Part shown: one piece after another, positions 5,620-47,707 of the stretch
How positions within the stretch are numbered: the stretch's first letter is position 1
How the letters are laid out: each line of letters begins with the position of its first letter
Origin: Elusimicrobiota bacterium
GTDB lineage: Bacteria; Elusimicrobiota; Elusimicrobia; Elusimicrobiales; UBA9959
DNA length: 64,000 nt
Reading direction: 5' to 3'
Assembly: GCA_036574205.1 (NCBI GenBank)
Contig: JAINCQ010000037.1
Span: 32,001-96,000 of the forward strand
Program-made: the position numbers and the translations under genes
Notes under the pieces: generated by a model
Seen by the model: the letters and a program-made list of their open reading frames with translations, nothing else
The model's database searches: none
Told to the model about the DNA's origin: nothing

Positions 5620-5647
5620 ATTTTTAATTTTAACATTTTTAAAAATG

Positions 5648-7550: not shown

Positions 7551-8668
7551 TCTTTTGCCATCTCCGCTATTATTGATTTTGCAACATCCTTTGAAATTAT
7601 AGCCTCTTTTATATTTAGTTTTTCATAAGGTGTATGAACATTTTTCATCCCTGTGGGGATATTTGCTGTCTTTATTCCCATTTTAAAAAAATTATTTGCG
7701 TCAGTTCCGCCAAAACTTTTTATAAATTTGGCTTTTAATCCAATCTTTTTATATGAGTTTTCTATATTTTTTAATAATACCTTATCTTTTTCTATTGAAA
7801 AGCTTTCAAATCTTTTTCTTATATTAATTAAACATTTTGATTTTTTATACTCTTTTTGACTGGATACAAAGTCAACTATCTGCTTTATTTTGCTTTCAAC
7901 TTTAATTATCTCTTTTAAATCAAAACTACGTATCTCTCCCTCAGCTTGCGCAAAAGGTGGAACTATGTTTATTCCTGATCCTCCTTTTACAAATCCAATA
8001 TTTATAGTAGTGTTTTTTGAAATCCTTCCCTGTGTTATTTGGGATATTATTTTTGAAATTATAGATATAGCTGAAACTCCTTTCTCTGGTTCTACCCCGG
8101 AATGTGCCGCAATCCCTTTAACATCTATTGTGAAATTATCCACTCCGACTGATGATATAACCACTTCATTTATTTTCTTTTCATTATCAAATACAAGTCC
8201 ATATTTAGATTTTAAGAGATCTTTTTTCATAAATCTTGTCCCTAAAAGCCCTATTTCCTCGCATACCGAAAATACCAGTTCAAGTGGAGGATGATTAATT
8301 TTTTCTTTTATTAACTCTTTTACAGCATGGATTATTATTGCTATACCAGCCTTGCAATCAGCTCCAAGTATTGTTTTGTTAGCTGTTGTTATAAAACCGT
8401 TTTTTACAATTATATTTGGTTTTGTTTCAGTTGATACTGTGTCAAGATGCGCTGAAAGAAGGAAAGGCTTTAATTTTTTGTCACCAGGTATTTTGACTAT
8501 AAGATTACCTGTTTCGCTTTGAGTAAACTTTTGAGTTTCATCTATTATAATTTCAGATGAAATTTCACTTAATTCTTTTTTTACATATTCGCATATTTGT
8601 TTTTCTTTTCTTGAAGGAGATATTATCTCAGCCATTTCGCAAAAGGTTTTTATCATTGGACTAATCAT
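7547..8668 (-). CDS. M20 family peptidase (peptidase T-like)
   Basis: SAHLDTV, LGADCKAG, CEEIGL, AHSG..PEKG, GGTDAN, HTPYE. Confidence 0.9.
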   Translation of the reverse strand: MISPMIKTFCEMAEIISPSRKEKQICEYVKKELSEISSEIIIDETQKFTQSETGNLIVKIPGDKKLKPFLLSAHLDTVSTETKPNIIVKNGFITTANKTILGADCKAGIAIIIHAVKELIKEKINHPPLELVFSVCEEIGLLGTRFMKKDLLKSKYGLVFDNEKKINEVVISSVGVDNFTIDVKGIAAHSGVEPEKGVSAISIISKIISQITQGRISKNTTINIGFVKGGSGINIVPPFAQAEGEIRSFDLKEIIKVESKIKQIVDFVSSQKEYKKSKCLINIRKRFESFSIEKDKVLLKNIENSYKKIGLKAKFIKSFGGTDANNFFKMGIKTANIPTGMKNVHTPYEKLNIKEAIISKDVAKSIIAEMAKE

Positions 8669-9549
8669 TTACTTACCTCTATGCATTTGTAATAGTGATT
8701 TTTTCCTGCGGATGAGACTTTTCCATCAAATTTAAGGCATGCTTCTGAAAATTCTATACAGATATTTGAGAATACACAGGCTGAATTTACTTCTCTTTCA
8801 ACTATGGATATTTTCTCATTTTTTTTGTCAGTTGAAAGTATAGATGATATGAGAAGTTTTGTGTATGGATGCGCTGGTTTTGTTATAACAGCCTGAGTAT
8901 CCCCCCATTCAAGCATCTCTCCTTTATAAAGTATTATAACTTTGTTTGTTAAATAATATATAGATGATATATCGTGTGAGACAAAAATTAGCGTAAATTT
9001 ATACTCTTTCAAAAGATCTTTTAATAAATTTAGAATCTGAGCTGAAATTGATATGTCAAGGCTTGAAATAGGTTCATCGCATATTAATAAATCAGGTTTT
9101 GTTATTATAGCTCTTGCTATAGCAACCCTTTGTTTTTGTCCACCTGAAAGTTGATGTGGATATTTATGTGCCAGATCATAAGAAAGTCCAACCTTTAAGA
9201 TTGTTTCAGTAAATAACTTATCCAGGTTTTTTTTGTCTTTTGGTTTTTGGAGTAGAAGTGGTTCCAATACAATATCTTTTATTTTCATTCGTGGATTAAG
9301 ACTTGACGCAGGATCCTGAAAAATATACTGTATATGTATAGTGGGAGAATTTTCGTTTGTATTGAATTTGATCTCCCCCTTAGTTGCTTTTTCAACTTGA
9401 GCTATAGCCTTACATAAAGTAGTTTTCCCGCTTCCAGACTGGCCCGCTATCCCAAGGGCATCGCCTTTTTCAATATCAAATGAGATATTTTTTAAAGCGA
9501 AAAAATTTTTATATTTTACGCTCAGGTCTTTTATTTCAAGTATTTTCAT
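8665..9549 (-). CDS. oppF: Oligopeptide ABC transporter ATPase (OppF/DppF)
   Basis: [23 protein letters not shown], Cys-rich tail. Confidence 0.92.
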
Positions 9550-10487
9550 ACATTCCAGCAGCTATAAAAACCACTCTCAGTTTTATTTGATGGCGGCTTT
9601 TTCATACATTTTTCATTTGCGAAATTGCATCTTGTCATAAATCTACATCCCCGGGGCATTTCAAATATTGATGGCATTATGCCTTTTATTGTTTTAAGAG
9701 TATCTTTCTTTTCTAATTTTACTATTGATTCTATAAGCGATTTTGTGTAAGGGTGTCTTGGATTTTTTATTATATCCTCTGTTTTGCCTTCTTCCATAAT
9801 CTCGCCTAAATACATAACATAAACATAATCTGAATACTGCGAAACTATGGCAAAATTATGTGTAATAAGCATAACGGAAAGTTCTTTTTCTTTTTTCAGT
9901 TTTTCAAGCAGGTTTAATATTTCTATCTGAGTAACTACATCAAGCGCTGTTGTAGGTTCGTCAGCTATTATAAGCGAAGGGTCGGTTAAAAGTGAGGTGG
10001 CTATTAGTATTCTTTGCCTTTGTCCTCCGGAGAAATTGTGAGGATACATTTTTATTTTATCTGGTGGTATTCCTACTGTTTTAAGTAATTCTCTGGCTTT
10101 ATTAATAGCATTTTTTTTATCGGCTAATTTATGCTGGATTAAAACTTCTATCATCTGTGTCTGAATATTGACTACTGGATTTAATGCAGTAAGTGGTTCC
10201 TGAAAAACAAATGAAATTTCTTTCCCTCTCAACTTTCTTATTTCATTTTCTCCCAACTGAGCTATGTTTTTACCTTTAAATATTATCTCCCCGCTTTCTA
10301 TAAATATGTTTTTATCAAGAAGCTTTATTATTGAAAGAGCGGTAAGTGTTTTCCCGCTTCCAGACTCCCCTACAATAGCAACTGTTTGACCTTTTTCTAT
10401 TTTTATTGAAACATTATTTACTATGTTGTATTTTTTTGAGTTTATATTGGCGGAAAGAGAAAGATTTCTTATTTCAAGCGTATTCAT
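9546..10487 (-). CDS. oppD: Oligopeptide ABC transporter ATPase (OppD/DppD)
   Basis: GESGSGKT, FSGGQRQR, ADEPTTALD, HPYT, GCRF..RC. Confidence 0.93.
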   Translation of the reverse strand: MNTLEIRNLSLSANINSKKYNIVNNVSIKIEKGQTVAIVGESGSGKTLTALSIIKLLDKNIFIESGEIIFKGKNIAQLGENEIRKLRGKEISFVFQEPLTALNPVVNIQTQMIEVLIQHKLADKKNAINKARELLKTVGIPPDKIKMYPHNFSGGQRQRILIATSLLTDPSLIIADEPTTALDVVTQIEILNLLEKLKKEKELSVMLITHNFAIVSQYSDYVYVMYLGEIMEEGKTEDIIKNPRHPYTKSLIESIVKLEKKDTLKTIKGIMPSIFEMPRGCRFMTRCNFANEKCMKKPPSNKTESGFYSCWNV

Positions 10488-10930
10488 TTAGAATTTAATA
10501 TGATAGTTACCGGTCCATCATTTTCAAGAGCAACAACCATCTCCTCTTGAAAAACCCCGGTTTTTATTTTTTGGGGATTGTAGTTTTCCTTTAATTTTTT
10601 TACAAAAAGATTATAGAACTCAAGGGCTTTGTCAGGAGGCATTGCTTTTGAAAAATCGGGTCGTCTTCCTTTTGAGGCGTCGCCTATGAGGGTAAACTGA
10701 GAAACAGCAATAATTTCTCCCTCTATGTCTTTTATTGAAAGGTCAAATTTTCCTCTGTCATTTGAAAATATTCTGAGATTTAATATTTTATTAACCATCC
10801 ACTCTATATCTTTTTCATTATCATCTTTGGCAAATCCACATAAAACAAGATATCCTTCAGCTATTTGAGAGTAAATCTGGTTGGCTATTTTGACATTTGA
10901 TTTTAAAACCCTTTGAACTACACAAATCAT
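10484..10930 (-). CDS. dtd: D-aminoacyl-tRNA deacylase
   Basis: VVQRV, SQFTL, KGRRPDF, NDGPVT. Confidence 0.96.
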   Translation of the reverse strand: MICVVQRVLKSNVKIANQIYSQIAEGYLVLCGFAKDDNEKDIEWMVNKILNLRIFSNDRGKFDLSIKDIEGEIIAVSQFTLIGDASKGRRPDFSKAMPPDKALEFYNLFVKKLKENYNPQKIKTGVFQEEMVVALENDGPVTIILNSK

Positions 10931-10987
10931 ATTTTCCAAGATAATTGCCCAATTTTATGATCTTAGATAAAGATCTTATATTATCTG

Positions 10988-12112
10988 TTATTGTTCAAGC
11001 AATTCAACATTTGCTCTTGGGACAATAACTTTTTCTCCAGTTTCAAGTTCAACCTCAAGAATTCTTACATGACTTTCTGTCTGGATAATTGTTGGTTGTG
11101 GTGGAAGATTTGAGACTCTCCCAATGAGACCAAAATAAGGTTCTCTTATTATTCTTATCCTATCGCCTATCTCCATCCATGTTCTTGATTCATCTTTTCT
11201 TTTAACATCCATATTCTTTGGCGCTCCGCAAATTATTATCTCTGGCCTCATTACCCCCGCTCTTATCTGAGTTGCACCGCTTACAGATGCTTTTTCTCCT
11301 TCCCTTGCCTTTAATAGTTTAAATGTATATTCAGCCATTCTTATCTGCCCAAATCCTTCAGTTGTGATAATAGTTATCCCTATTTTTTCTGTGCCGGTTA
11401 CAGCAACACCTATATCATAACCCAGTAATTGTCTTAAGTCTTTATCGTGTATGCCGGCAACCACTATTGCATTTACACCTATTTTAATTGCTTTTTTTAT
11501 TGTTTCAATTCCCGCATGTTTTCCGCCAACTATTATCTTTTCTCTATCTGAATCCTTTATGTGCTCTGGAAGTAGTTCTTCGTCAGGAGTGTCAACGGCA
11601 ACCCTTATCTCTCCGTTTGTCTCTCCGCCTATTCCAAATATTCCCTGTATAAACGTCCCTTCAGTTTCTATTTCAACCCCAAAGTTTTGTTCAACTTTCA
11701 CAACTTTTCCTTTTATATAAGCTTTTAACGGAAGTATTTTTGGAGGTTCTCTAAATAAAACCTGTCCTGTTACTTCAGAAATTGAATCAAGAGTGCCTGT
11801 TATCGGGGAGACAACCTGCGAGCGGAGAAATCTTATAAAGGGTTTTGTCTCGGCTATAACCTCTCCCTTTTTTACACTATCCCCAGGTTTTTTGATCAGG
11901 TAATTTTTCATTTCAGCTGGCGTAATTCCCAGTCTGTTTGCTACATTAACAGAGTATACTTTTCCAGGAATCTGAGCTTCAGCTACAACATCAAGCGCAT
12001 CAACCTCTTTCCCCTCAGATACAAGAACCTTGCCAGGTATTGGTAACGTCCTTTTTTTCTTTATTAACGTTAGTGGTAAAACTTTTAATCCGGGAGTATA
12101 CGCATGAGCCAT
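10988..12112 (-). CDS. Conserved hypothetical protein, partner of the GlmL-like ATPase (barrel-sandwich-hybrid-like repeats, KOW-like C-terminus)
   Basis: MAHAYTPGL start with GGAG RBS; VSEGKEV, KKPGDSVKKGEVIA and VVSPITG segments; IGDRIRIIREPYFG tail. Confidence 0.75.
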   Translation of the reverse strand: MAHAYTPGLKVLPLTLIKKKRTLPIPGKVLVSEGKEVDALDVVAEAQIPGKVYSVNVANRLGITPAEMKNYLIKKPGDSVKKGEVIAETKPFIRFLRSQVVSPITGTLDSISEVTGQVLFREPPKILPLKAYIKGKVVKVEQNFGVEIETEGTFIQGIFGIGGETNGEIRVAVDTPDEELLPEHIKDSDREKIIVGGKHAGIETIKKAIKIGVNAIVVAGIHDKDLRQLLGYDIGVAVTGTEKIGITIITTEGFGQIRMAEYTFKLLKAREGEKASVSGATQIRAGVMRPEIIICGAPKNMDVKRKDESRTWMEIGDRIRIIREPYFGLIGRVSNLPPQPTIIQTESHVRILEVELETGEKVIVPRANVELLEQ

Positions 12113-12122
12113 TTTTCCCTCC

Positions 12123-13919
12123 TTATTTTTCAGGATACATTTTTATTTTACTTAACCATTTATTAAGGTTTTCTATCCTCTTTGATTCGCTTTTTGAAAT
12201 TTCTAAAGGTCTTCCTCTTCCATCAAAGAGTATTCCTCCAACCCCACCCTGTATCTTTGCTTTTACCTTTGCATTTTTCCCTTCTCCTGCATTAAATCCT
12301 TTCATTGGTTTAAGGATTATCTCAGCTTCATCATCAGGTAATTCCACAAGGTATATTTCTCCAAACCTTAACTCTCCATTTATAACTTTCCCTTCTTTTG
12401 TTTTTATCTCCCATTCTAAAATTAACTCTCCTTCCTTTGCAACTCCGACTGGGGCAATAGTTGTACCAAGTTTTATAAGGCAGTCATTATAAAAGACGTC
12501 CAGCGCAGCTTTTTCGCTTATCTGAGATAATACCCCAAGATGAGGCATCATAAATATTGAATCCACTGCAAGCATTGTTATTCCTTCAAGTTGATAGGAG
12601 TCTGTCATTAGAACCATTGACTGAACTCTTCTTGGAGAATGAGCCAATACCCCGCCGGACCCTATAACATAATTTAGTTTCATCATATTTATCAAAGATT
12701 GACCGGTGGATGTCTGTTCAAAGGCGTCTGAGATAGACCTTTCCTGTTGCACACCTTTAAGTCCAACAGCAAGAAGTTTATGCTGTTCTAAAGCAAGCCT
12801 TAATGCTTCTCTTGCCACGGCGTGTTCTATCATCAGGTCTTCTATAGTTTGTGGTATGGTCGTTGGTCGTATCATTTTGTTTTTCAGTCTATTTCTTATG
12901 TCCTGCTCGTCAATTTTAAAAGGAAGCCATCTCATTATATTCTGAACCCCGGCTTCGGCCATCACATTTGAAACCGAATAGCTCATTCCAAGATTAGCGC
13001 TTACGGTTCTATTGAATATACCGTCAAATATTGAAAAAACATCAGTTGTTGCTCCACCTATATCTACTGCAAGAACATTGTATCCCTTTGCCTTTGCGAA
13101 TTTTTCAGTCATAAGGCCTACAGCCATTGGGGTTGGCATTATAGGAGCGCCAACCATTTTCATTAATTTGGGATAGCCCGGAGCCTGTTGCATAACGTGT
13201 TCAAGAAAAACGTCATGTATTTTATGCCTTGCTGGCATAAGATTCTCTCTTTCAAGAACTGGCCTGATATTTTCGGTTATCATCAAAGCAGTTTTTTGAT
13301 CAAGTATTTCTTTAACTTTATCTCTTGCGGCATTATTGCCGGCGTATATAACTGGAAGCTTATAAGAGGCTCCAAGCCTTGGCTTTGGATCTGCGGCTTT
13401 TATAAAATTTGCAAGTTCAACGACATGTGTAATTGTTCCCCCATCAGTTCCGCCTGATAGAAGTATCATATCAGGTCTGAGCTGTCTTATTCTTTCTATT
13501 TTTTCATGATCCGCCCTTCCGTCATTTGAGGCTATTATATCCATTACTATTGCTCCAGCGCCAAGGGCGCATCTCTGAGCGGATTCTCCTGTCATTGATT
13601 TCACAGCCCCGGCAACCATCATCTGAAGTCCTCCTCCAGCAGAGCTTGTTGAAACATATATATCTACTCCTGTATTATCTTTATTTGGTGTAATAACTTT
13701 ATCTCCATCTAAAATTTTTCTACCTGAAAGTTCTTCAACCTCTGTAATCGCGTTTTTTACTCCGCAGGTAACATCCTCAAAAGGGGCTTCAACTGTCGTT
13801 GGAGCTTCTCCTCTAAAAGTTTGTCTATATGTATCGCCTTTTTTTTCTATTAAAATTGCTTTAGTTGTGGTGCTTCCGCAGTCAGTAGCTATTATAACAT
13901 TTAAATCCTTATCACTCAT
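12123..13919 (-). CDS. Glutamate mutase L (GlmL/MutL)-like ASKHA ATPase
   Basis: TDCGSTTTK (phosphate 1), SSAGGGL, LLSGGTDGG, VDIGGATTDVFS (phosphate 2), RTVSANLGM, GSGGVL. Confidence 0.85.
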   Translation of the reverse strand: MSDKDLNVIIATDCGSTTTKAILIEKKGDTYRQTFRGEAPTTVEAPFEDVTCGVKNAITEVEELSGRKILDGDKVITPNKDNTGVDIYVSTSSAGGGLQMMVAGAVKSMTGESAQRCALGAGAIVMDIIASNDGRADHEKIERIRQLRPDMILLSGGTDGGTITHVVELANFIKAADPKPRLGASYKLPVIYAGNNAARDKVKEILDQKTALMITENIRPVLERENLMPARHKIHDVFLEHVMQQAPGYPKLMKMVGAPIMPTPMAVGLMTEKFAKAKGYNVLAVDIGGATTDVFSIFDGIFNRTVSANLGMSYSVSNVMAEAGVQNIMRWLPFKIDEQDIRNRLKNKMIRPTTIPQTIEDLMIEHAVAREALRLALEQHKLLAVGLKGVQQERSISDAFEQTSTGQSLINMMKLNYVIGSGGVLAHSPRRVQSMVLMTDSYQLEGITMLAVDSIFMMPHLGVLSQISEKAALDVFYNDCLIKLGTTIAPVGVAKEGELILEWEIKTKEGKVINGELRFGEIYLVELPDDEAEIILKPMKGFNAGEGKNAKVKAKIQGGVGGILFDGRGRPLEISKSESKRIENLNKWLSKIKMYPEK

Positions 13920-14214
13920 TTTTACCTCCTTCTAATTGTTGCTTTAAATATTCTATACCCTTTGGATTTTCAATAATACTTGAAAGTTTGGTTAGCTCTT
14001 GCTTTGAAAATATAAATCCTAATGTTGGTTCTATAAAATACATAATGTTTGAGGCTATTGTATGAATAGGTGTTGTTGCTTCAAGAGCAAATATTGCAAT
14101 ATCTTCCATCTTGCGTTTTTTTATTTTTATTGCTGCTCTTAAAATAAAATCCTTCTCATCCTCAGAAAGTTGTCTTCCTTTATTTATCTTAAAAGCATTT
14201 GACCATATGCTCAT
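13912..14214 (-). CDS. Small hypothetical protein coupled to the glmL-like gene
   Basis: 100 aa; stop overlaps the next start; TATAAT 6 nt upstream of the ATG. Confidence 0.7.
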   Translation of the reverse strand: MSIWSNAFKINKGRQLSEDEKDFILRAAIKIKKRKMEDIAIFALEATTPIHTIASNIMYFIEPTLGFIFSKQELTKLSSIIENPKGIEYLKQQLEGGKNE

Positions 14215-14255
14215 AACTAAATTATATTATTTTTTTTCTAACTTTTCCATTTGCT

Positions 14256-14720
14256 TTATTTTAACCATCTTAATTTGATTTTCTCTCCTTTTTTGATTCC
14301 AATTTTTCTAGCCATCCCGGCATTTAATTCTATTACATACATAGCATTTGAACTAACCCTTGCAATTTTTTCATTAGGTGTTGTATCTCCAGAGGCGGGC
14401 GTTTCGGCAAATATTTCATTTACCTTAAAATTTTTTGAAACAAAAATTATGTCAAGCGGAATGTACGTGTTTTTCATCCAGAATGTCCTTTCTGTCTCTT
14501 CTTCAAAAATAAATATCATGCCGCATTTTTCACAAAGGTTCTTCCTGAACATTAACCCAAGCGTTCTTTCGTGTTCAGTTCTGGCTATCTCAAGAGATAT
14601 CTCAACCCCATTTGCTTTCAATATGGCTTTTTTTGCGTTTTTTATAGAATTGTTATTCATAGAAAAAAATGCTATTAAACACAGTATAATTATTAAAGCT
14701 GTTATAAAAATTTTTTTCAT
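14256..14720 (-). CDS. DUF192 family exported protein
   Basis: GLMFRK, GMIFIF, FWMKNTYIPLDIIF, YVIELNAG. Confidence 0.9.
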   Translation of the reverse strand: MKKIFITALIIILCLIAFFSMNNNSIKNAKKAILKANGVEISLEIARTEHERTLGLMFRKNLCEKCGMIFIFEEETERTFWMKNTYIPLDIIFVSKNFKVNEIFAETPASGDTTPNEKIARVSSNAMYVIELNAGMARKIGIKKGEKIKLRWLK

Positions 14721-15169
14721 TTTGGGAAGTTTTTCTTTATAATTTGTTCAAGATATTCAGTATCTGATATGTCTTTTTCAATTTCTTTTTTGATTGCTAA
14801 TGAGCGTTCAAAATTCAGGTTTATATTATAACCCATAGCTCTTGCTATATCAAAAACTGATTTTTTTTCTTTTTCCATTTTTTTAATCAGATCGCTAAGA
14901 GTGATTTTATTATCAACGCAAAATTTAAGAGCAAATATGATTTCAGTTCTATAAAATCCGTTTTTTTTCAAATAGAAGATTTCTTCAATGCTTTTTGTGG
15001 ATTCTGCTATATCATAATTAAAATTTTTTTTAAAAAAATCCATGGTTTTTTCCATAAAAACTCTATCATAGAAAGATTCCGCGAGTGTGATATTAAACGA
15101 AGAAATTTTACTGTCGTATAATGTTTGTGAATAAGCTGGGTTTGAGAAAAATAAAAACAAAAAAAACAT
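14717..15169 (-). CDS. Hypothetical exported protein
   Basis: Signal-like N-terminus; overlaps both neighbours. Confidence 0.6.
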   Translation of the reverse strand: MFFLFLFFSNPAYSQTLYDSKISSFNITLAESFYDRVFMEKTMDFFKKNFNYDIAESTKSIEEIFYLKKNGFYRTEIIFALKFCVDNKITLSDLIKKMEKEKKSVFDIARAMGYNINLNFERSLAIKKEIEKDISDTEYLEQIIKKNFPK

Positions 15170-15402
15170 TAGATGGAAGTTGTTACAAGTGTTTCTGTAG
15201 ATAAAACCCCTGGTATGTTTCTTATTTCATTTACCACAACCTGTGAAAGCTGTTCAAGATCAGATGTCTCCATATCAAGAACAAGATCCCACCTTCCAAA
15301 TACCGCGGACATATGAACAACTTCTTTGATCGCTCTGAGTTTTGGTAAAACCTGTTTTTCCTTTCCTGGAATCATTTTAACTAAAACAAGTCCCGTTACC
15401 AT
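15169..15402 (-). CDS. Stand-alone Lrp/AsnC ligand-binding (RAM) domain protein
   Basis: 77 aa; VFGRWDLV...IRNIPGVLSTETLV; no HTH domain. Confidence 0.88.
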   Translation of the reverse strand: MVTGLVLVKMIPGKEKQVLPKLRAIKEVVHMSAVFGRWDLVLDMETSDLEQLSQVVVNEIRNIPGVLSTETLVTTSI

Positions 15403-15411
15403 AGAATCTCC

Positions 15412-16158
15412 TTATGCAGTTTTTCTGGATTGAAGTTTTTTCATCAGGATTTTTTCTGCTATGAAATAAATTATAAGCCCGGCTATTACCCAGTTTGTTG
15501 CATAAAAGTATTGAGCCGAAGAATATCTTACAAGAAGGTCAAACCTTCCGTAAAGAAGTGAAAATCTTGCCATAACAGTGTTGCCAAATGATGCTCCAAA
15601 GTATATCATGAGAAAATAAACACCAAAGTTGGATATCTTTTTCACACTCCCCTTATGTTCAACAGAAAAGAAAAAATAAAATAAAACAGACAGTGTCCCA
15701 ACTAAAAGTAATATGGAGTTAAACATTGCAATTCCAGTTAAGTTGAAAAATTTAGCAAACGGCTCTATTGTGCCAAGTATCTGGTTTGTGAAATCAGTTG
15801 CTATCCCCGCTGGTAACACAAGTCCGGCTGAATATCCCATAAGAAATGTAAATCCATATCTTGATATCCATGATATCTTCGGGATAAACTGTGTTATTAA
15901 TGAAAGTCCAAGTATTGTTGGTATTATCAACATCCATACTTCAAACCATCTTCCAGCTTTAATATGCTCTACAAGTGGCTGGTAAACATTTGGTATTATT
16001 ATTTTATATATTGTTAGTTGTATATGCCAGGCAAGTCCAACACCAACATAAAGATGTTCCGCTATCTTAAAGAACATATTATCCTTGTATAGGAAGGAGA
16101 ATATAAAAAGAGTAAGTCCTGCTGCAACAAAAGCGCCGTATATAGCTTGTATTTCCAT
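15412..16158 (-). CDS. Polytopic membrane protein of unknown function
   Basis: About 7 hydrophobic segments; SFLYKDN..FKIAEHLYVG and FGASFGNTVMARFSLL motifs. Confidence 0.75.
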   Translation of the reverse strand: MEIQAIYGAFVAAGLTLFIFSFLYKDNMFFKIAEHLYVGVGLAWHIQLTIYKIIIPNVYQPLVEHIKAGRWFEVWMLIIPTILGLSLITQFIPKISWISRYGFTFLMGYSAGLVLPAGIATDFTNQILGTIEPFAKFFNLTGIAMFNSILLLVGTLSVLFYFFFSVEHKGSVKKISNFGVYFLMIYFGASFGNTVMARFSLLYGRFDLLVRYSSAQYFYATNWVIAGLIIYFIAEKILMKKLQSRKTA

Positions 16159-16161
16159 ATT

Positions 16162-16989
16162 TCACTCCTTTGTGAATTTAAGCGTAAGTAAAACTATATT
16201 TGAGAATATAATAAATGTTATAACTAAAAGGTGAGCTATATTTAAAGCATCTATGCCACTTGTTCCTTTCCACGGCTCGGATATAAGTCTTTCATATTCC
16301 GCCGATCCTTTCATCCCGCCAATAAGCCCCTTAATCTGCTTTTTTTGAAGATATGGCCCATAGCCAACCTGGCTTATGGCAGTTACCCCACCTAAAATCG
16401 GAACTCCATATTTATCGCCAACATAGACCACCCAGTAATCAAGTATCGCTGTTCCAGTTATATCTATAATGCAGGATATATCTTTATAGTTTTTAATATT
16501 CTTCATCATCTCAAAATCCCTTAGCGGTTTATTGTTTACATCTTTGTCATAAATAGCATATATATCTGAAGACATCTGGGTTAAAACTGCGGCAATATTA
16601 GGCATATATGGAAGAAGAACATAGTCTTTACCATATTCCTTCCCGAATTTTGGAGGTATTGTTCTGGTTAACTCATCTATTAAACCTCCTGATCCTGCAA
16701 GAAAGGTTAGTATAATAACTTTTATATTTTTTTTGAAAGCATGCTTTAAAATAGCAGCTGCCTGAGGATGTAACTCAGGCGCGGTAGAGGGATCGTAGTC
16801 AAGTGAAAGAATTATCGTTGAATTTTCAGGAATCTTTTCAATAAAATCATATACACTTTGAACCGATGTTGATATTGATTTAGATGTTATTCCAATTGGT
16901 TTTATGATTGGTATTAGAATTGAAAGCGTCAAGAGTAAAAAAAGCCATCTTCTGTCTATCTTCAAAAGCTTATTTAAATTTTCTTTCAT
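16162..16989 (-). CDS. Membrane-anchored protein with extracytoplasmic alpha/beta domain
   Basis: TM helices at both ends; DYDPSTAPEL, YGKDYV, GLIGGMKGSAEYE. Confidence 0.75.
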   Translation of the reverse strand: MKENLNKLLKIDRRWLFLLLTLSILIPIIKPIGITSKSISTSVQSVYDFIEKIPENSTIILSLDYDPSTAPELHPQAAAILKHAFKKNIKVIILTFLAGSGGLIDELTRTIPPKFGKEYGKDYVLLPYMPNIAAVLTQMSSDIYAIYDKDVNNKPLRDFEMMKNIKNYKDISCIIDITGTAILDYWVVYVGDKYGVPILGGVTAISQVGYGPYLQKKQIKGLIGGMKGSAEYERLISEPWKGTSGIDALNIAHLLVITFIIFSNIVLLTLKFTKE

Positions 16990-17002
16990 ACCCTTCTCCT
17001 TT

Positions 17003-17671
17003 TTATTCTTTACCCATATATCCGCGTTCTATTCCAAATATTATTTTTAGTGAGGTAACAGCAGCTCCAATAGCTATTCCTATCATTATTCCTCTTTTGC
17101 CTGCTGTGGCTGGAACGTTCATTATCCAGTCTTTTATCTGGGCTATGGTTATTTTAGTCCATGCAAATAATTTATCCCAAATTATTTCTCCAAGTGGAAT
17201 ATTCCCAAGCATAAGTATCAGCCCTGCTATAAATAATAAAAAGGCAGAAAATGATTTTATTCTAAAAGACCTGTATGCAGTTGATATGATATAAAAAGCA
17301 AGAACCGAAAACATTGTGGCGCTTAAAGGATTGTATATATTATTAAATGCCCAGCCTAATGCGGTAATATCTGTGCCTTTTGATATAACCCCTTTGCTTA
17401 TAAAAGCAGCACCCATCATTATCAAAAACCCAAGGTATACAAAAATACTATATCCCCAGCCATCTGCTTTTCTCTGGATTTTTCTGTAATGAGCATAAAA
17501 TAAACTTATCATTCCAAGGAAAAGAGCAAATGCGGCAACTATATTTTCCCATATATTTATTGTTTCAAGATATTTTTCAGACATTCTGTTTGGGACATAG
17601 TATGACGCAAGGGTCACCATGCCGAAGATAAAAACAATCGTAAGAGGTATGTGTTTTTTTATAAGATTCAT
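17003..17671 (-). CDS. Polytopic membrane protein of unknown function
   Basis: About 6 TM helices; PLSATMFSVLAFYIISTAYRSFR and RGIMIGIAIG...GIERGY motifs. Confidence 0.75.
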   Translation of the reverse strand: MNLIKKHIPLTIVFIFGMVTLASYYVPNRMSEKYLETINIWENIVAAFALFLGMISLFYAHYRKIQRKADGWGYSIFVYLGFLIMMGAAFISKGVISKGTDITALGWAFNNIYNPLSATMFSVLAFYIISTAYRSFRIKSFSAFLLFIAGLILMLGNIPLGEIIWDKLFAWTKITIAQIKDWIMNVPATAGKRGIMIGIAIGAAVTSLKIIFGIERGYMGKE

Positions 17672-17672
17672 A

Positions 17673-18944
17673 TTATCTCACCTTTAATATATCCAGTATT
17701 TTTTCTATTATTATTGTATTATTCCACTTAGACATAATAAGCGCGGCTATTGAAAGAACAGAAGCAGTCAGTATAAACACAAGTTTGCCAAAATCCTGAA
17801 CCTTAAGGGCGCTTACAAGCATAGGTTCTTTTGAAAGATACGCTCCTGCGGCGTATAATTCCTCTCCTATTAATGTATAATCACAGGCTGTAACAAAAAA
17901 TGGGAGCTGATGGTCTACGTCTGTTCCAGCTATTTGTATTGCTCCAGTTGAAGCGCCGACCTCAGCAAGCAACAAAGACTCAGCCATAAAATACCCCATA
18001 TAAAAACATGCAGCTGGTTTCTCGCGGGATATCATCCCGTCTATTGCGGCGGCATACGCAAACTGATCCTGGGTTATAAACATATTTATATCATCTCTGA
18101 AAGAATCTGGCCTTTCCGCTTCTATATATGATTGCTTTACGGTCTCTTTAGCTACAGTAAAAACTATCGGGTCATAATGGGGAACCTTTATTGTGGCGTC
18201 ATATTGCGCTATTTTTTTTGAAACCTCGCCAAGTATAAAAACTGAGGCTATAGTGGATATATTTGACATAGAACCTATTCCCGGGACATATATTACAGAT
18301 TTACCCATCTCAGTAGCTCTTCCAACTGCCTCATCTATTGCGTCAAGCCCTGCTATTCTTCTTATAAACAACTCTCTTTTTTTAGCATGTGAAACAATAA
18401 TAAAAAATACTATTGATATTATTAAAACTATAATAAAGTGATTGATTCTATCCCACCTGAACCAATTTCCTTTTACAACACCTTCGACAGTTTGTGATTC
18501 GTAATTTTTCTTACCGTCTGATATGTGTATTTTAGAATAAATTTTAAATCCATCTTTAAATTCATCAAAAAAATCTTCTTCTTTTAGGGAAAAAACTTTT
18601 AGAATTGGGACAATGACAGAGTAATTGTTTAATTTTTTATCCCAGAGCCAGAAAGGGAGGTCTATATCTTTTGCAGTACTTTCTTTATATTTTATTTCCC
18701 TGAACTTTATCCAGTTTTTGCTATCCGATGAGAGGTAAACGGTATAAATAGAATCTTTTTTTTCATCATCAACTGCCCATATAACTATTGCTGAATCTCC
18801 TCTATCACCTGGATAATCAATAAGACTAAAGTTTTTAATTTCAATATTTTCAAGCCCTGTCAAATCTTTTTTTACTTTAGGCAGAGCATTTAGTAAAGAG
18901 GAAGTCAAAATTAAACATACGAAAATATTTGTTATTTTTTTCAT
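17673..18944 (-). CDS. Exported N-terminal domain plus C-terminal DUF6754-like membrane domain
   Basis: Signal peptide; IRRIAGLDAIDEAVGRATEMG and QLPFFVTACDYTLIGEELYAAGAYLS (family name from recall). Confidence 0.75.
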   Translation of the reverse strand: MKKITNIFVCLILTSSLLNALPKVKKDLTGLENIEIKNFSLIDYPGDRGDSAIVIWAVDDEKKDSIYTVYLSSDSKNWIKFREIKYKESTAKDIDLPFWLWDKKLNNYSVIVPILKVFSLKEEDFFDEFKDGFKIYSKIHISDGKKNYESQTVEGVVKGNWFRWDRINHFIIVLIISIVFFIIVSHAKKRELFIRRIAGLDAIDEAVGRATEMGKSVIYVPGIGSMSNISTIASVFILGEVSKKIAQYDATIKVPHYDPIVFTVAKETVKQSYIEAERPDSFRDDINMFITQDQFAYAAAIDGMISREKPAACFYMGYFMAESLLLAEVGASTGAIQIAGTDVDHQLPFFVTACDYTLIGEELYAAGAYLSKEPMLVSALKVQDFGKLVFILTASVLSIAALIMSKWNNTIIIEKILDILKVR

Positions 18945-18991
18945 ACTATATTAAAAATATAACATTTTTCAAATATCAAATCAAGAAATTT

Positions 18992-19840
18992 TTATCTTAT
19001 TTCTATTTTAGCAGAATTTTTTAGCTGATTGATTAATTGATTTTTCCCTGATGTTAAAAGCGTAGCTGTAATTGATTGTTTTATTTTTTCTTTTACTTCT
19101 TCAAATTTAAGAGTTGTTTGCGGTCTTTTTTCTTCGACCTTAAATATTGAATATCCATTTCCTGTTTTAATTGGTTTTGTATATTTTCCGATTTCTGTTT
19201 CAAATATTTCTTTTTCTATTTCAGGAAGAAGCATGCCTTTAGATATAAATCCCAGTTCTCCTTTCGTTTGTTTGAGCCTTTCATCTGCGGATTTTAGTTC
19301 TGCTAATTTCTCAAAGCTTGCTCCTGCATCAAGCGCAATTATTATATCATTTGCCTCTGCTTGAGTGTTTACAAAAATCTGTCTTATCTTAAGTGCTTCT
19401 GGAATCTGAAACTGAGCTGGGTTTGAATCATAGTATTTTTTTGCATCTTCATCTGTTACGTTTATATTTAAAATATTTATTATAGCTCTTTCTATTAAAA
19501 GATTGTTCTCTATCATTGCATAATAATCTTTTTCTGAAATATTAAGTCTTTTAAGTTCTTTCTTAAAATCATTTTCTGAGTTAAAGCGCTTTTTGATCTC
19601 TTTTATTAACTCATTAACTTCCTGCTTTAAGACACTTATCTTTCTTTTTTTTGCTTCCTGTATAATGAGCTTATCTGCCAGAACCTCATCAAGGGTTTTT
19701 GCAAAATAATTCAATGACATCCTGTTTCTTATTTCATTGAATGTTATAGATTCTCCATTTATTGAAGCGACAACATTATCCTGAGAGTTAAGCAAAGCAG
19801 TTATGCTGCTGGTAATGATTATAAATAACATTTTTTTCAT
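18992..19840 (-). CDS. PrsA/SurA-type parvulin peptidyl-prolyl isomerase
   Basis: VVASINGESIT, FEKLAELKS, GELGF, PIKTGNGYSIFKV. Confidence 0.9.
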   Translation of the reverse strand: MKKMLFIIITSSITALLNSQDNVVASINGESITFNEIRNRMSLNYFAKTLDEVLADKLIIQEAKKRKISVLKQEVNELIKEIKKRFNSENDFKKELKRLNISEKDYYAMIENNLLIERAIINILNINVTDEDAKKYYDSNPAQFQIPEALKIRQIFVNTQAEANDIIIALDAGASFEKLAELKSADERLKQTKGELGFISKGMLLPEIEKEIFETEIGKYTKPIKTGNGYSIFKVEEKRPQTTLKFEEVKEKIKQSITATLLTSGKNQLINQLKNSAKIEIR

Positions 19841-19842
19841 AA

Positions 19843-20889
19843 TTAGCCTCCTTGCTTTGAAATATAAAGTTTTTGAGTGGGATAGGCAAATTCAATCCCA
19901 TTTTCCTGAAATTGTCTTGCTATTTCGCAAAGCACCTGTTCATTTAAGTTTATATAAAGAGAGTAATCTGCTGAAAGGATATAGTATACAAATTCAAAAT
20001 CAATAGAATAATTATTAAATCTGATTAAATTTGCTCTGTCGAATCTTGTTTTTTCAACTTTTTCAACGGATTTTTTAATTATTTGTGGTATCAATTTTAG
20101 CTTTTCCATTGGAGTTTCATATATTACTCCGATTGTTTGAAGAACTCTTCTTTCTCTCATAAAGGAAAAATTTTGTATTATCTCACCCATTATTTTTGAA
20201 TTAGTTATAAACGCAAGTTCTCCACTTAAGGTCCTTATCCTGATAGATTTAAGTCCTATTTCCTCTATCGTTCCAGAAATATTTTGCTGGGGAAGCGAGA
20301 TAAAATCCCCGACTTTAAATGGCTTATCAAATATTATTACAAAAAAATTGAATATATCTCCTAAAATTGTTTGAGAGGCTAATGCCAGAGCTACTCCGCC
20401 TATTCCAACTCCTGCAAGAAGTGAGCTTATATTGATGCCAGCATTTTGTAAAAGGAAGAGTATTGCTATAATCCAGACAAATATTCTAAAAAATATCCTG
20501 ATTGCATTTAAGGACTTTGCGTACTCATTTCCTGATATCTGTGAAAACCAGAAATTGATGATAGCTTCAAGAGATGAGACTACTCTGTAAGTTATAATGA
20601 TAACAAGGATCCAGTGTAATATTATTTGAATTTTGGGATTTAAATAAAGTGGTTTTAATGCTATATATAAAGCTATAAATTGGTATTCAAACCACTTTAT
20701 TCTATTTATTAGATCTACTGTAAAATCATCAAATTTAGTTTCAGTTTTTTGGGATATCTCCTCTATTTTTTTGAGTATTTTGGATTTAAAGTAATAAAGA
20801 AGTTTTGTGGCTGTTATAAATATAGCTATGGAAATAATATATTTTAAAACGGTATTCCCAAATAAATTAAAGTCTAAAACTGAATTCAT
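19843..20889 (-). CDS. mscS: Small-conductance mechanosensitive channel
   Basis: GIGGVALALASQ, DKPFKVGDFI, GIEFAYPT; start re-called to ATG 20889. Confidence 0.92.
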   Translation of the reverse strand: MNSVLDFNLFGNTVLKYIISIAIFITATKLLYYFKSKILKKIEEISQKTETKFDDFTVDLINRIKWFEYQFIALYIALKPLYLNPKIQIILHWILVIIITYRVVSSLEAIINFWFSQISGNEYAKSLNAIRIFFRIFVWIIAILFLLQNAGINISSLLAGVGIGGVALALASQTILGDIFNFFVIIFDKPFKVGDFISLPQQNISGTIEEIGLKSIRIRTLSGELAFITNSKIMGEIIQNFSFMRERRVLQTIGVIYETPMEKLKLIPQIIKKSVEKVEKTRFDRANLIRFNNYSIDFEFVYYILSADYSLYINLNEQVLCEIARQFQENGIEFAYPTQKLYISKQGG

Positions 20890-21016
20890 AAAAATATTAT
20901 ACAAATTAAAAAAATAATTTTTTAAAATATAAACTATCAAACTAATTTAATATAAATAATATAAAATTTTTGTTAATTATACTTATGTTTTCCCCTTAAA
21001 GTTTTTTAATCAGTTA

Positions 21017-21418
21017 TTATTTATAGTGAAGTTTTAAATTTTTTCTGTTTAAATCAGCTAACTCAAACTCAGAGGTGAAAGCAAGTGCTTTTTTAGGGCA
21101 TATCTCAACACATTGCGCGCAATATATACACCTATCTAAATTCATTATGCAATCAAATTTTCTTGAAACTGGGGATGGTTTGCCGTCAGGTTGAATTTTG
21201 GGTTCTGGTTGATCAGGCGATAAAATTATTTCTATCGCTTTTGATGGACAGACTCTCATACACATTTTACATCCAATACATTTAGCGCTTTCAAAAACTA
21301 CTCTTCCTCTAAAATTTGGATATGTTTTTGCTTTCTCAAAAGGGTATTTGGATGTAGCAGCTTTTTTTGAAAGATGTTTTATAGCCTGGGGAAAAAGTTT
21401 TAAAGGTTTTTTAGCCAT
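21017..21418 (-). CDS. Hydrogenase 2x[4Fe-4S] subunit (NuoI/EchF-like)
   Basis: CIGCKMCMRVCP and CIYCAQCVEICP. Confidence 0.92.
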   Translation of the reverse strand: MAKKPLKLFPQAIKHLSKKAATSKYPFEKAKTYPNFRGRVVFESAKCIGCKMCMRVCPSKAIEIILSPDQPEPKIQPDGKPSPVSRKFDCIMNLDRCIYCAQCVEICPKKALAFTSEFELADLNRKNLKLHYK

Positions 21419-21430
21419 ATTTCTTACCTC

Positions 21431-22369
21431 TTAAATTTTAATTTTAATAAATAAATCTATGAGTATTTGTATCATTGAAACTGGAACAAGCCATTTCCAT
21501 GAAAACTTTACTACCTGATCCACTCTTACCCTTGCCATAAGAACTCTAAATAATATTAGGATAAAGCATATAAAAAAAGTTTTTATCAAAAATACTATAA
21601 AAGCAGTTATCCCACTTAATTTAAAAACTCCACCCAAAAAAACAGCGTTTATTAAAGCGGCAACTACAACCATTTCTATATCTATTGAGAGTAAAAATAA
21701 TGCAAGCAATCTTCCAGAATACTCAGTGAATTGTCCGCCCACTACCTCATTTTTAGCATGAGGAGCGTCAAATGGAACTCTTTCTAACTTTCCTTCAGAT
21801 GCAAGCAATGCTGCAAGAAACCCCGGGATATTTATTAATATGTAGAGAGGATTATTTGCAAAGAAATTTGCTATCTCCTTAACTGACCAGCTCCCACTTA
21901 ATATTGCACATCCAGCAACAGATAAAAAAAGTGGAACCTCATACCCGAATAATTGCGTCATTACCCTCATAGAACCTATCGTTGAATATGGACTTGTTGA
22001 TGACCAGCCTGCAAGGAAAAAAGTTACAGTTGGTATTGTTAGCAAATAGATTATAACTATCAGATCCCCTTCAAAGGATATAAGCGGATCTCCCCATATC
22101 GGCAACATAAATATGGTAGTTATTATACTTGCTATTGCAACATATGGCAAAGCTTTAAATAAAATTATATCTGCATTATCAGGAACTATAACTTCTTTAG
22201 ATATAAGTTTTATAAAATCTGCAACTGGTTGATATATCGGAGGACCAACCCTGTTTTGCATTATGGCTGCTAATTTTCTATCAACCCATTGAATACACAT
22301 GCCGTATGTCCCTAAAAAAATAAATCCAGGGAATACGATTATATATATTAAAGGCATTATAAGATCCAT
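21431..22369 (-). CDS. Hydrogenase membrane anchor (NuoH/EchB-like)
   Basis: RKLAAIMQNRVGP, QPVADFIKL..KE, RVPFD, TEYSG. Confidence 0.92.
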   Translation of the reverse strand: MDLIMPLIYIIVFPGFIFLGTYGMCIQWVDRKLAAIMQNRVGPPIYQPVADFIKLISKEVIVPDNADIILFKALPYVAIASIITTIFMLPIWGDPLISFEGDLIVIIYLLTIPTVTFFLAGWSSTSPYSTIGSMRVMTQLFGYEVPLFLSVAGCAILSGSWSVKEIANFFANNPLYILINIPGFLAALLASEGKLERVPFDAPHAKNEVVGGQFTEYSGRLLALFLLSIDIEMVVVAALINAVFLGGVFKLSGITAFIVFLIKTFFICFILILFRVLMARVRVDQVVKFSWKWLVPVSMIQILIDLFIKIKI

Positions 22370-22378
22370 ATCTTCTCC

Positions 22379-23566
22379 TTATTTAAAGCTAATTCCTTTT
22401 CTCTTATAAAATTCTATAGAGTATTTTCTTAATTCTTCCCAGTCAAATACCTTCTTTTTCCCGGTTTTTTGATCATATACAATAGCTCTATCAGTGCAGC
22501 TCATACATGGATCAATGGCTGCTATGGTAATTATTGCATCTGCTAAATATCCATTTTTAAGACAATATGGAAGAGATTGAAAGTTTGCAAGCGTTGGGGC
22601 TCGAACTTTTACTCTTTCTGGATATTCTGTGCCATTTGCATTTACATAATGTATATCTTCACCTCTTGGAGCTTCATATCTAAACACTGCCTCTCCAGGT
22701 CCTATTTTCCATGGAAGTTTAACTAAGATTGGTCCTTCTGGAAGGTTTTTCAATATCTGTTCTATCATCTTATATGATTCTATAGTTTCAAGAACTCTTA
22801 CTACAGCTCTTCCAAAAACATCGCAAGAATTATAAGTTATAACCTTCCAGTCAAGTTGATCATATATAAAATATGGCTCATCCCTTCTTACATCTATATC
22901 AACACCGCTTGCTCTTGCTGTAGGTCCAACAGCGTTTAGTTCAAGAGCTACTTCTTTTGGAAGTTTTCCAACATTCTGAGTTCTTGCAAGAAATGTAGGC
23001 TCTTCTGTAACGACCTCAACATAATAAGAAGTTCTTTCTTTAAGATATTTGACTTTTTTCAATATTTCATCAGCCTGTTCTTTTGTGATATCCCTTCTGA
23101 CACCTCCGATTGTATTTATCCCGTAATGAACCCTGTTACCAGTTAAAAGCTCAAGACAATCAAGGATCTGTTCTCTATCCCTCCACGTATACATAAACAA
23201 GGTGTCATATCCAAGCTCAAATGCAGCTACCCCAAGCCATAAAAGATGTGAGTGAATCCTTTCAAGTTCCGCTACAAGGGTTCTTATAGCTTTTGCTCTT
23301 TGAGGTATTTCAGCTTTTGCTATCTCTTCAACTGCGTTTATATAACAACTTACATGAGAATGTGAACATATACCGCAAATTCTTTCAACTAAATAGATAT
23401 CCTGAATAAAGTTTCTGTTTTCTGCTGCCTTTTCAACTCCCCTATGATTGTATCCAAGATTTACTGTCGCGTCAACAATCTGTTCTCCATTTAAAACCAA
23501 CATAAAATTCTCTGGTTCTTTTAATGCTGGATGCTGAGGTCCAAGTGGTATTTGCATCTTTGACAT
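22379..23566 (-). CDS. Group 4 [NiFe]-hydrogenase large subunit
   Basis: L1 ERICGICSHSH; L2 DPCMSCTDR followed by a C-terminal extension. Confidence 0.95.
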   Translation of the reverse strand: MSKMQIPLGPQHPALKEPENFMLVLNGEQIVDATVNLGYNHRGVEKAAENRNFIQDIYLVERICGICSHSHVSCYINAVEEIAKAEIPQRAKAIRTLVAELERIHSHLLWLGVAAFELGYDTLFMYTWRDREQILDCLELLTGNRVHYGINTIGGVRRDITKEQADEILKKVKYLKERTSYYVEVVTEEPTFLARTQNVGKLPKEVALELNAVGPTARASGVDIDVRRDEPYFIYDQLDWKVITYNSCDVFGRAVVRVLETIESYKMIEQILKNLPEGPILVKLPWKIGPGEAVFRYEAPRGEDIHYVNANGTEYPERVKVRAPTLANFQSLPYCLKNGYLADAIITIAAIDPCMSCTDRAIVYDQKTGKKKVFDWEELRKYSIEFYKRKGISFK

Positions 23567-24057: not shown

Positions 24058-24072
24058 AATTCACCTCGTTAA

Positions 24073-24516: not shown

Positions 24517-24526
24517 AAAGCCGTCC

Positions 24527-24850: not shown

Positions 24851-24853
24851 AAA

Positions 24854-25641: not shown

Positions 25642-25651
25642 TAATCCTCCA

Positions 25652-45159: not shown

Positions 45160-45172
45160 AATATCTCCATTG

Positions 45173-47620: not shown

Positions 47621-47707
47621 AAAAGCCTCCATTTTAAAGACAACATTATCATTTTATAATTTAATTAATTTATTGTAAAATTGTATTTAATTTAAGGAGG
47701 AATTTTT

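Follow-up and report, generated by a model that had tools for sequence, protein, structure and literature searches.

We propose that seven neighbouring genes in a stretch of DNA from an Elusimicrobiota bacterium encode an ATP-driven inner-membrane machine, in which a soluble ATPase unit would work together with a four-subunit membrane unit, and we give this proposal a probability of about 45%. The stretch, which is called the window here, has 64,000 nucleotides (nt) and is taken from the forward strand of contig JAINCQ010000037.1 (assembly GCA_036574205.1, positions 32,001-96,000). The soluble part consists of GlmL598, an ATPase of the GlmL type that is a member of the actin-fold (ASKHA) family, and of two further proteins, p100 and p374; the membrane part consists of a DUF6754 protein and of the proteins m222, m275 and m248. 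Because the seven genes stay together across more than 10 phyla, they probably form one membrane-linked machine. We rate the system as being of a kind not yet described, and searches of the literature, in which the listed papers on GlmL were judged on the title and the start of the abstract, found no description of it.

The seven genes belong to a run of ten open reading frames (ORFs) that lie head to tail at 10988-18944, all on the - strand, with intergenic gaps of -8 to 41 nt. The ORFs are mechanical calls, and the families were assigned by scans with Pfam and NCBIfam. An earlier reading made from the sequence of the window only (the sequence-only reading) had described a tightly packed and co-oriented run of ten genes here, and every one of these ORFs is present at its place on the - strand. 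The seven genes considered as the module are, in the order of the run, as follows.

17673-18944, - strand: DUF6754 protein, 423 amino acids (aa), matching PF20539 with 369 bits (gathering cut-off 27).

17003-17671, - strand: m222, 222 aa, polytopic, with no family.

16162-16989, - strand: m275, 275 aa, with one transmembrane (TM) helix at each end and no family.

15412-16158, - strand: m248, 248 aa, polytopic, with no family.

13912-14214, - strand: p100, 100 aa, a small conserved protein with no match in Pfam or NCBIfam.

12123-13919, - strand: GlmL598, 598 aa, matching the Pfam family MutL/GlmL (PF13941) with 418 bits.

10988-12112, - strand: p374, 374 aa, with a weak RnfC_N match of 23.0 bits, under the cut-off of 25.6.

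The evidence that carries our proposal comes firstly from other genomes. Species-representative genomes were scanned with an alignment of 29 ATPase sequences, which gave 595 confirmed relatives, and the best 80 loci were kept. By the titles of their records, these come from Elusimicrobia, Nitrospirota, Nitrospinae, the anammox Planctomycetota (Brocadia, Scalindua and Anammoxibacter), Methylomirabilis and Latescibacterota, and further from WOR-3, BRC1, Gemmatimonadota, Eisenbacteria, Zixibacteria and one Bdellovibrionales metagenome-assembled genome (MAG). The presence of each gene was scored by profile hidden Markov models (HMMs) over all six-frame ORFs of the 80 loci, with the denominator being the number of loci that are able to show the gene, namely 79 loci with at least 500 nt upstream of the ATPase gene, 70 with at least 1.5 kb downstream and 55 with at least 7.5 kb downstream. 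It is found that p100, the most constant neighbour of the ATPase gene, lies directly upstream of it in 78 of 79 loci, that p374 comes after it in 60 of 70, and that p374, DUF6754, m222, m275 and m248 are all present in 43 of 55. The remaining 12 of these 55 loci include two with four of the downstream genes, four with p374 alone and six with none. With BLASTP and the window proteins as queries, all five downstream genes are found in 42 of the 55 loci. Over the full set of 80 loci, DUF6754 is present in 57, m222 in 53 and always after DUF6754, and m275 and m248 in 49 each. The grouping of seven of the ten genes exceeds chance and recurs across more than 10 phyla, so that the co-occurrence in other genomes, on which the sequence-only reading had made its proposal of a membrane system depend, is borne out for the ATPase, p374, p100 and the four membrane proteins.

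The linkage is seen together with differences in the order of the genes. The commonest order is p100-glmL-p374-DUF6754-m222-m275-m248 on a single strand. In the window the membrane block stands ahead of p100-glmL-p374, with the two blocks still adjacent, and in other Elusimicrobia loci a GT-C-type glycosyltransferase gene separates p374 and DUF6754. Since the block orders differ within Elusimicrobia and yet the adjacency is kept, the linkage has survived rearrangement. Relatives of GlmL598 from other phyla are 62-79% identical to it over the full 598 residues, and the membrane proteins are 28-68% identical across phyla. Moreover, locus L038 holds two complete DUF6754-m222-m275-m248 sets (12917-19705) and a single p100-glmL-p374, and the fetched stretches of L070 (13038-19594) and L080 (16398-21664) hold a second, partial membrane set, again with a single p100-glmL-p374; the duplicated copies in these three loci are 37-53% identical. 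From this block duplication beside a single soluble set it follows that the membrane genes behave as one unit, of which a genome can have more copies than of the soluble unit.

Further evidence of a connection comes from the soluble part. In the window, 8 nt are common to the p100 gene and the start of the ATPase gene, and this overlap together with the near-constant adjacency, taken as translational coupling, is evidence that p100 and the ATPase belong together functionally. An alignment of 52 members with the window protein shows that p100 has conserved RHAFA, LESxxPxNFLGSQ and LLERRD blocks. A fusion of p100 to the longer forms of the ATPase was rejected, because the extensions at the N-termini of P0134 and P0192 are not similar to p100. 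The ATPase and p374 do occur in one chain: P0121 carries p374 at residues 621-994 with 47% identity, 82 of 83 longer p374 relatives carry PF13941, and many of the 150 ATPase representatives listed at the 50% identity level are 900-1050 aa long, the fused forms including proteins from Planctomycetota, Neomarinimicrobiota and Cloacimonadota. This fusion in other lineages is evidence that its two parts belong together functionally. It is noted that in one ATPase representative a Peptidase_M1 domain stands at the N-terminus. The one exception among the 83, P0271 (707 aa), is a candidate fusion of p374 with DUF6754 and was rejected, as it is a single sequence from one contig, is cut short at its end and has an internal stretch like a signal peptide, that of DUF6754; most likely it results from read-through or from an artefact of gene calling, and it is not counted as evidence.

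GlmL598 matches PF13941 at residues 9-479, which correspond to profile positions 1-449 of 450 (gathering score 27), and about 120 aa follow this region as a C-terminal extension. With GlmL/MutL (NF040745, PF13941) it shares the Pfam family, a region alignable over residues ~7-480 and the positions of the ASKHA phosphate and adenosine motifs. Thus D13, T19, D150, G156 and G422 are invariant in the alignment of 29 sequences, and G15, D286, G288, A290, T291 and T292, which are the DxGxT and DIGGATTD positions, are nearly invariant (at least 90%). GlmL598 differs from GlmL in the C-terminal extension, where D566 and R568 are invariant in the 29 sequences, in its p100, p374 and membrane partners, and in that it never stands beside glmS or glmE in the window and the 80 loci, whereas the three annotated canonical loci that were inspected have the arrangement glmS-glmL-glmE-mal.

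The distance from the canonical GlmL can be given in numbers. GlmL598 scores under the NCBIfam cut-offs for GlmL (NF040745, 236.7 versus 475 bits), for Or-4 of ornithine degradation (NF040744, 220.5 versus 600 bits over residues 10-477) and for TIGR01319 (172.7 versus 204.05 bits), and the 29 aligned relatives are also below these cut-offs in a similar range, the best E value being 3.4e-72. Or-4 belongs to the same superfamily as GlmL598, but no aminomutase genes are seen in the window. A tblastn search of plasmid records gave ten shorter GlmL-type matches that are 27-29% identical to GlmL598 over residues ~7-480; among the five of the ten that were inspected, L081-L083 are annotated as glmS-glmL-glmE-mal, with mal encoding methylaspartate ammonia-lyase, and two are unannotated. 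In a tree of 58 sequences, obtained by a quick maximum-likelihood search with IQ-TREE in which long branches were flagged (the joining branches having 0.58 and 1.49 changes per column), the five short GlmL forms are set apart from the 53 long or fused forms with an SH-aLRT support of 100. GlmL598 did not fall in with the mutase-linked GlmL, a grouping that the sequence-only reading had named as speaking against its idea, and by the relationships of its sequence it is a distinct, slowly evolving GlmL subfamily. That reading had also remarked that the window has no GlmS, GlmE or other B12 enzyme, and this was confirmed twice: the Pfam scan of 64 ORFs of the window yields neither glmS nor glmE nor any further B12-binding family, and tblastn queries (three of GlmS, three of GlmE, one of Mal) have no match at E<=1e-3 in the window and the 80 loci, which together amount to 1.46 Mb. 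Against the PDB, GlmL598 as a single protein matches no chain at E<=1, and the best E value of its profile, 0.0073, is not significant.

For the membrane part, the topology was predicted from hydropathy and from the lysine-plus-arginine (K+R) bias over alignments. The DUF6754 protein has a signal-like N-terminus followed by two TM regions by hydropathy, and in its AlphaFold2 (AF2) model, with a pLDDT of 69.8, the ectodomain is Ig/FN3-like, a TM helix stands between it and an alpha/beta domain, and further TM helices form the C-terminus. PF20539 covers residues 158-407, and the best-conserved stretch of the protein (~294-387) is that of the lowest model confidence. The K+R bias places the alpha/beta domain in the cytoplasm by prediction. 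A fold search with this model gave Ig/FN3 matches and weak matches to the Nir2 LNS2 domain with a root-mean-square deviation of ~22. Longer DUF6754 relatives of at least 742 aa number 486 at E<=0.001, and the best 120 of them (P0352-P0471) cover 51-89% of the query; they keep the core, with the ectodomain replaced by FN3 or beta-propeller repeats, and some of these best 120 carry FN3 or PQQ-type beta-propeller repeats besides DUF6754. Sources assign these longer relatives to Brocadiia, Cloacimonadota, Armatimonadetes, Eremiobacterota, Vulcanimicrobiota, Dependentiae and other groups. For m222, hydropathy and the K+R bias predict about six TM helices. The protein m275 is bitopic, with N- and C-terminal TM helices that flank a domain of alpha/beta type, and it starts with an invariant D12-R13-R14, which the K+R bias places in the cytoplasm, the central domain then being predicted to lie outside, in the periplasm.

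The proteins m222, m275 and m248 have no family in Pfam, NCBIfam or PADLOC and no significant profile relative in the PDB; sequence and profile searches of the PDB with six of the seven module proteins, that is, all except p100, gave nothing significant. In a lenient Pfam scan at E<=1 of 29 membrane and p100 proteins there were scattered sub-threshold matches, among them a TMD0_ABC match in three of eight m222 proteins (E 0.007-0.05). Paralogy inside the membrane set was rejected as well: hhalign gave a probability of 0.3 for m222 with m248 and 0.4 for DUF6754 with m275, so that the members of each pair are taken to be unrelated.

Based on these data, our proposal can be described as follows. 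The cytoplasmic part would consist of GlmL598, its near-constant companion p100 and the multidomain partner p374, and the membrane part of DUF6754, m222, m275 and m248, which are inherited, and in three loci duplicated, as one block and are predicted to expose the conserved alpha/beta domain to the cytoplasm and the variable ectodomain and the m275 domain to the periplasm. The binding and hydrolysis of ATP by GlmL598 may perform conformational work, as in the chaperone-like reactivases; p374 would transmit it to the membrane complex on the cytoplasmic side, and the membrane complex would then process a substrate, or move it, within the inner membrane or through it. A prediction of the complex of p374 with DUF6754 residues 160-423 plus m222 gave ipSAE values of 0.07 and 0.01, where the mark is 0.32, and counts neither for nor against binding. 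The GlmL family belongs to the chaperone-like reactivases, and the ASKHA reactivases and Hsp70 do conformational work on partner proteins. The B12 reactivases DdrA and EutA and the Hsp70-type chaperones thus provide a working analogy to GlmL598, with the difference that no B12 enzyme is in its neighbourhood. A review groups glutamate mutase, diol dehydratase reactivase and EutA among the actin-fold enzymes that do not polymerise (PMC5597319).

The plan of the module has a counterpart among known machines. The energy-coupling factor (ECF) transporters have one energising module common to several membrane components, and there are ATP-binding cassette (ABC) systems with bitopic accessory subunits. 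The module shares with the ABC and ECF machines the plan of a cytoplasmic ATPase unit and of two polytopic and two bitopic proteins with soluble domains, and L038, L070 and L080, where two membrane sets go with one soluble set, are parallel to the ECF arrangement. By contrast with the ABC and ECF machines, Pfam and NCBIfam find no P-loop or ABC domain and no recognised permease family in the seven module proteins, and the membrane proteins are dissimilar to any transporter family in Pfam, NCBIfam and the PDB. The adjacent OppD/F genes belong to a separate, ordinary ABC system. It would be a further step, and we regard it as unlikely, that the system is the first primary inner-membrane machine powered by an actin-fold (ASKHA, GlmL-type) ATPase rather than by a P-loop, P-type or rotary one, formed with six families that have no known relatives, spread over more than 10 mostly uncultured phyla, and possibly replacing other machinery of the well-studied phyla.

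Several points weigh against the proposal of an ATP-driven membrane machine. The contact between the soluble and membrane proteins and the hydrolysis of ATP by GlmL598 are steps that we infer. None of the membrane proteins resembles a known transporter in Pfam, NCBIfam or PDB profile searches, or, for DUF6754, in the fold search. In ten of 55 loci (L005, L009, L033, L056, L077 and the five WOR-3 loci L065, L068, L069, L072 and L075) at most p374 accompanies the ATPase gene, which means that the ATPase-p100 pair can be encoded apart from the membrane genes or can exist without them, and which keeps open the alternative of a separate soluble enzyme or chaperone. Furthermore, the 80 loci are the best-scoring ones of 595 and are phylogenetically uneven, with Nitrospirota and Latescibacterota over-represented, so that the counts of loci are not counts of independent events. 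Finally, the genomic context of the 80 loci has no single theme.

The AF2 model of p374 has a pLDDT of 86.3 and starts at the N-terminus with a barrel-sandwich hybrid domain and a beta domain; a Rossmann-like domain with five strands and the invariant TEGFG motif comes next, and a KOW-like barrel closes the chain. In the fold search p374 as a whole is matched by no PDB chain, the matches being at the level of domains alone: the KOW of NusG/Spt5, a partial one to LdcA/MccF, and NqrA (rank 50). The N-terminus is like the barrel-sandwich domain of RnfC and NqrA (PF13375, PF05896), for which the RnfC_N score is the one below the cut-off given above. Nothing in RnfC or NqrA corresponds to the rest of p374, namely the TEGFG Rossmann-like domain and the KOW-like barrel, and PDB profile searches find no Rnf- or Nqr-like membrane subunits among m222, m248 and m275. 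Atlas clusters of p374 relatives have RnfC_N, Biotin_lipoyl or NQRA_N in 10-30% of their members, and the Atlas neighbours of p374 are all uncharacterised. Over 29 sequences, p374 has 74 invariant columns, which include H3, E164, E242, E252, R284, R289 and E291.

These invariant polar residues are typical of an active site, which fits the possibility that p100, GlmL598 and p374 together form a soluble ATP-dependent enzyme of a metabolic operon, with the membrane proteins acting as a separate carrier for the substrate or product of the enzyme, independent of ATP, co-transcribed with it and not physically coupled to it. ASKHA enzymes of the multi-subunit hydantoinase, oxoprolinase and acetone-carboxylase types provide the analogy for such an operon, and GlmL598 does have a weak Hydantoinase_A match in Pfam (24.9 bits). 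The same possibility agrees with the ten of 55 loci where the ATPase-p100 pair has no membrane genes nearby, with the Opp genes between glmL and p374 in L044, L049, L051 and L061, as expected of a catabolic operon, and with the M4 peptidase between p374 and DUF6754 in L080. However, the cross-phylum identities of both the ATPase and the membrane proteins are high for a peripheral catabolic operon, a four-subunit membrane part that has domains on either side of the membrane, and of which the ectodomain varies, is more elaborate than a simple carrier, and no constant enzyme that would define a substrate is present in the neighbourhood. We thus consider a metabolic operon of this kind to be somewhat unlikely.

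A particular enzyme, the S66 LD-carboxypeptidase (LdcA/MccF), was considered for p374 on the partial fold match, which has a TM-score of 0.20-0.26 over 172-179 columns. The catalytic triad of the S66 LD-carboxypeptidases is Ser-His-Glu, and the Rossmann-bearing region of p374 has no invariant Ser or His, H3 being the sole invariant His in the 29 sequences; p374 as an S66 peptidase is therefore rejected.

The second alternative is that GlmL598 is, as is normally supposed for GlmL-family proteins, an ATP-dependent chaperone for reactivation or maturation, of which the client would be the membrane complex itself or a nearby lipoyl-dependent or radical enzyme (LipA, glycine cleavage). The membership of GlmL598 in PF13941 (418 bits) is in line with this, and p374 starts with a barrel-sandwich fold of the lipoyl/biotinyl type. 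Besides, lipoate-related genes are found upstream of p100 in three arrangements, with LipA directly upstream in Nitrospirota loci, LplA/B in Latescibacterota and GcvP in loci of WOR-3 type, and genes for lipoate, glycine cleavage or 2-oxoacid dehydrogenases are near the module in 30 of 80 loci. Such neighbours are, however, housekeeping genes, which are found in clusters of many kinds, and neither the window nor most of the Nitrospira and Elusimicrobia loci contain lipoate genes. Moreover, the residue at position 90, in the hairpin of p374, varies between K, R, E, Q and S in the 29 sequences, and since the hairpin lysine is not conserved p374 is no lipoyl or biotinyl carrier. A chaperone with a client of this kind is in our estimate quite improbable.

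The last alternative, that GlmL598 is an ordinary GlmL serving a glutamate mutase or aminomutase encoded elsewhere and that the membrane genes are unrelated neighbours, could draw on the several database sources in which relatives are called 'methylaspartate mutase' or 'glutamate mutase L', but it is scarcely credible in view of the scores of GlmL598 and its 29 relatives below the NCBIfam cut-offs, the low identity to GlmL over residues ~7-480 alone, the separate clade, the lack of GlmS, GlmE and Mal homologues in the window and the 80 loci, and the conserved linkage to p100, p374 and the membrane genes.

Returning to the proposal of a membrane machine, its substrate would have to be sought in the genes around the module, and there the three other genes of the run have to be separated from the conserved core. 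These are the following.

15169-15402, - strand: RAM77, 77 aa, matching AsnC_trans_reg (PF01037) with 54.7 bits (gathering score 25).

14717-15169, - strand: p150, 150 aa, with a hydrophobic N-terminus and no family.

14256-14720, - strand: DUF192 protein, 154 aa, matching PF02643 with 108 bits.

The match of RAM77 spans residues 6-75 of 77, and as there is no room for a helix-turn-helix in 77 aa, the protein is a stand-alone RAM domain and not a full Lrp/AsnC regulator. The DUF192 protein has a TM or signal segment at residues 4-22. The sequence-only reading had taken the RAM domain, the DUF192 protein and the exported 150-aa protein as parts of the system, and the wider sample does not bear this out: RAM77 is present in six of 80 loci, which are those of the Elusimicrobia group L001-L006 (77-80% identity), DUF192 likewise in six of 80, in L001-L006 alone, and p150 has relatives in none of the 80. 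The three proteins are lineage-specific local additions outside the conserved core. The dtd gene, which had been seen as a fitting neighbour, shares this fate, since it is found in six of 80 loci, in L001-L006 alone, and lies there on the opposite strand.

In the window the run is preceded upstream by genes for a SurA/PpiC-type isomerase, an MscS channel and Nuo-type subunits, and is followed downstream by dtd, OppD, OppF, an M20 peptidase and two Opp-type permeases, as identified by Pfam. No terminator-like site was found on the - strand at 5000-22000 of the window, a point that we count in favour of our proposal, and in a scan for promoters and terminators the counts were equal to or below those in shuffled sequence. 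An Rfam scan of the window gave tRNA alone, and the PADLOC models of anti-phage defence gave no family for the ten proteins of the run at E<=0.01.

Over the 80 loci, Opp-type ABC genes are near the module in 20 and peptidases in four, and Opp-type genes flank the module in the Elusimicrobia, BRC1 and Anammoxibacter loci. Lipid and envelope genes (fatty-acid, phospholipid, AsmA/YhdP, LpxK, GT-C and TonB-receptor genes) are near it in 33 of 80. As the Opp genes are matched or exceeded by the lipoate genes and by the lipid and envelope genes, the idea of a peptide or amino-acid substrate is possible and is not singled out, and we treat a peptide or an amino-acid-derived substrate as a weak lead.

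A number of observations on these neighbourhoods are added here. The Opp genes between the ATPase gene and p374 in the four Latescibacterota loci (L044, L049, L051 and L061) are OppA, OppB and OppC, at ~11700-16200 in each, and an OppD/F-type gene comes after m248 in L044 and L061. The peptidase of L080 (Zixibacteria, 13359-15875) is an 838-aa protein of the thermolysin-type M4 family with a propeptide motif, and the family is found in L034 also. In 16 Nitrospira/Nitrospirota loci a gene for a Memo-like protein (PF01875, 147 bits) follows directly after m248, for example in L022 at 17225-18475, and it may be a lineage-specific eighth gene. In the window, the Opp-type set lies at 5648-10487 on the - strand, with two ATPases and the M20 peptidase between the ATPases and the two permeases; a gene for an SBP_bac_5 binding protein was not found among the 64 window ORFs scanned.

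The module is of interest for several reasons. Its wide conservation, from Elusimicrobia to Nitrospira, anammox bacteria, Latescibacterota and WOR-3, makes an important role in the cell likely, and six of its seven proteins are outside any family of known function. It is present in nitrifiers and anammox bacteria, which are of environmental and engineering interest. The labels 'methylaspartate mutase' and 'glutamate mutase L' mis-annotate the subfamily of GlmL598 and wrongly imply glutamate fermentation. If it is true that the ATPase drives the membrane complex, this would be a new way of coupling ATP to membrane work in bacteria. The seven genes, with the natural fusion and the block duplications, provide a concrete target for studies of structure and genetics.

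Finally, we note some features elsewhere in the window and in one related locus. At 21017-30362 on the - strand there is a Nuo-type cluster with subunits C, D, H, I, J and K and three antiporter-like subunits, and no families of NuoE, NuoF or NuoG type were found among the window ORFs scanned. At 30446-32092, also on the - strand, a LytB/IspH protein of 548 aa is encoded, of which the Pfam domain covers residues 3-278 alone, with no assignment for the C-terminal half. At 43798-49036 an 819-aa fusion like dihydropyrimidine dehydrogenase (Fer4_20, Pyr_redox_2, DHO_dh and Fer4_21) is flanked by two amidohydrolase genes, which suggests reductive pyrimidine breakdown. At 59325-63027 on the + strand an 823-aa protein has a NifH-type domain (204 bits) joined to a nitrogenase component-1-type domain, and a second component-1-type protein follows it, the two making a nitrogenase-like pair. 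In a Nitrospira MAG, locus L016 encodes downstream of the module, at 18556-21782, a 1075-aa protein with SpvB and TcdB middle-region domains in Pfam.

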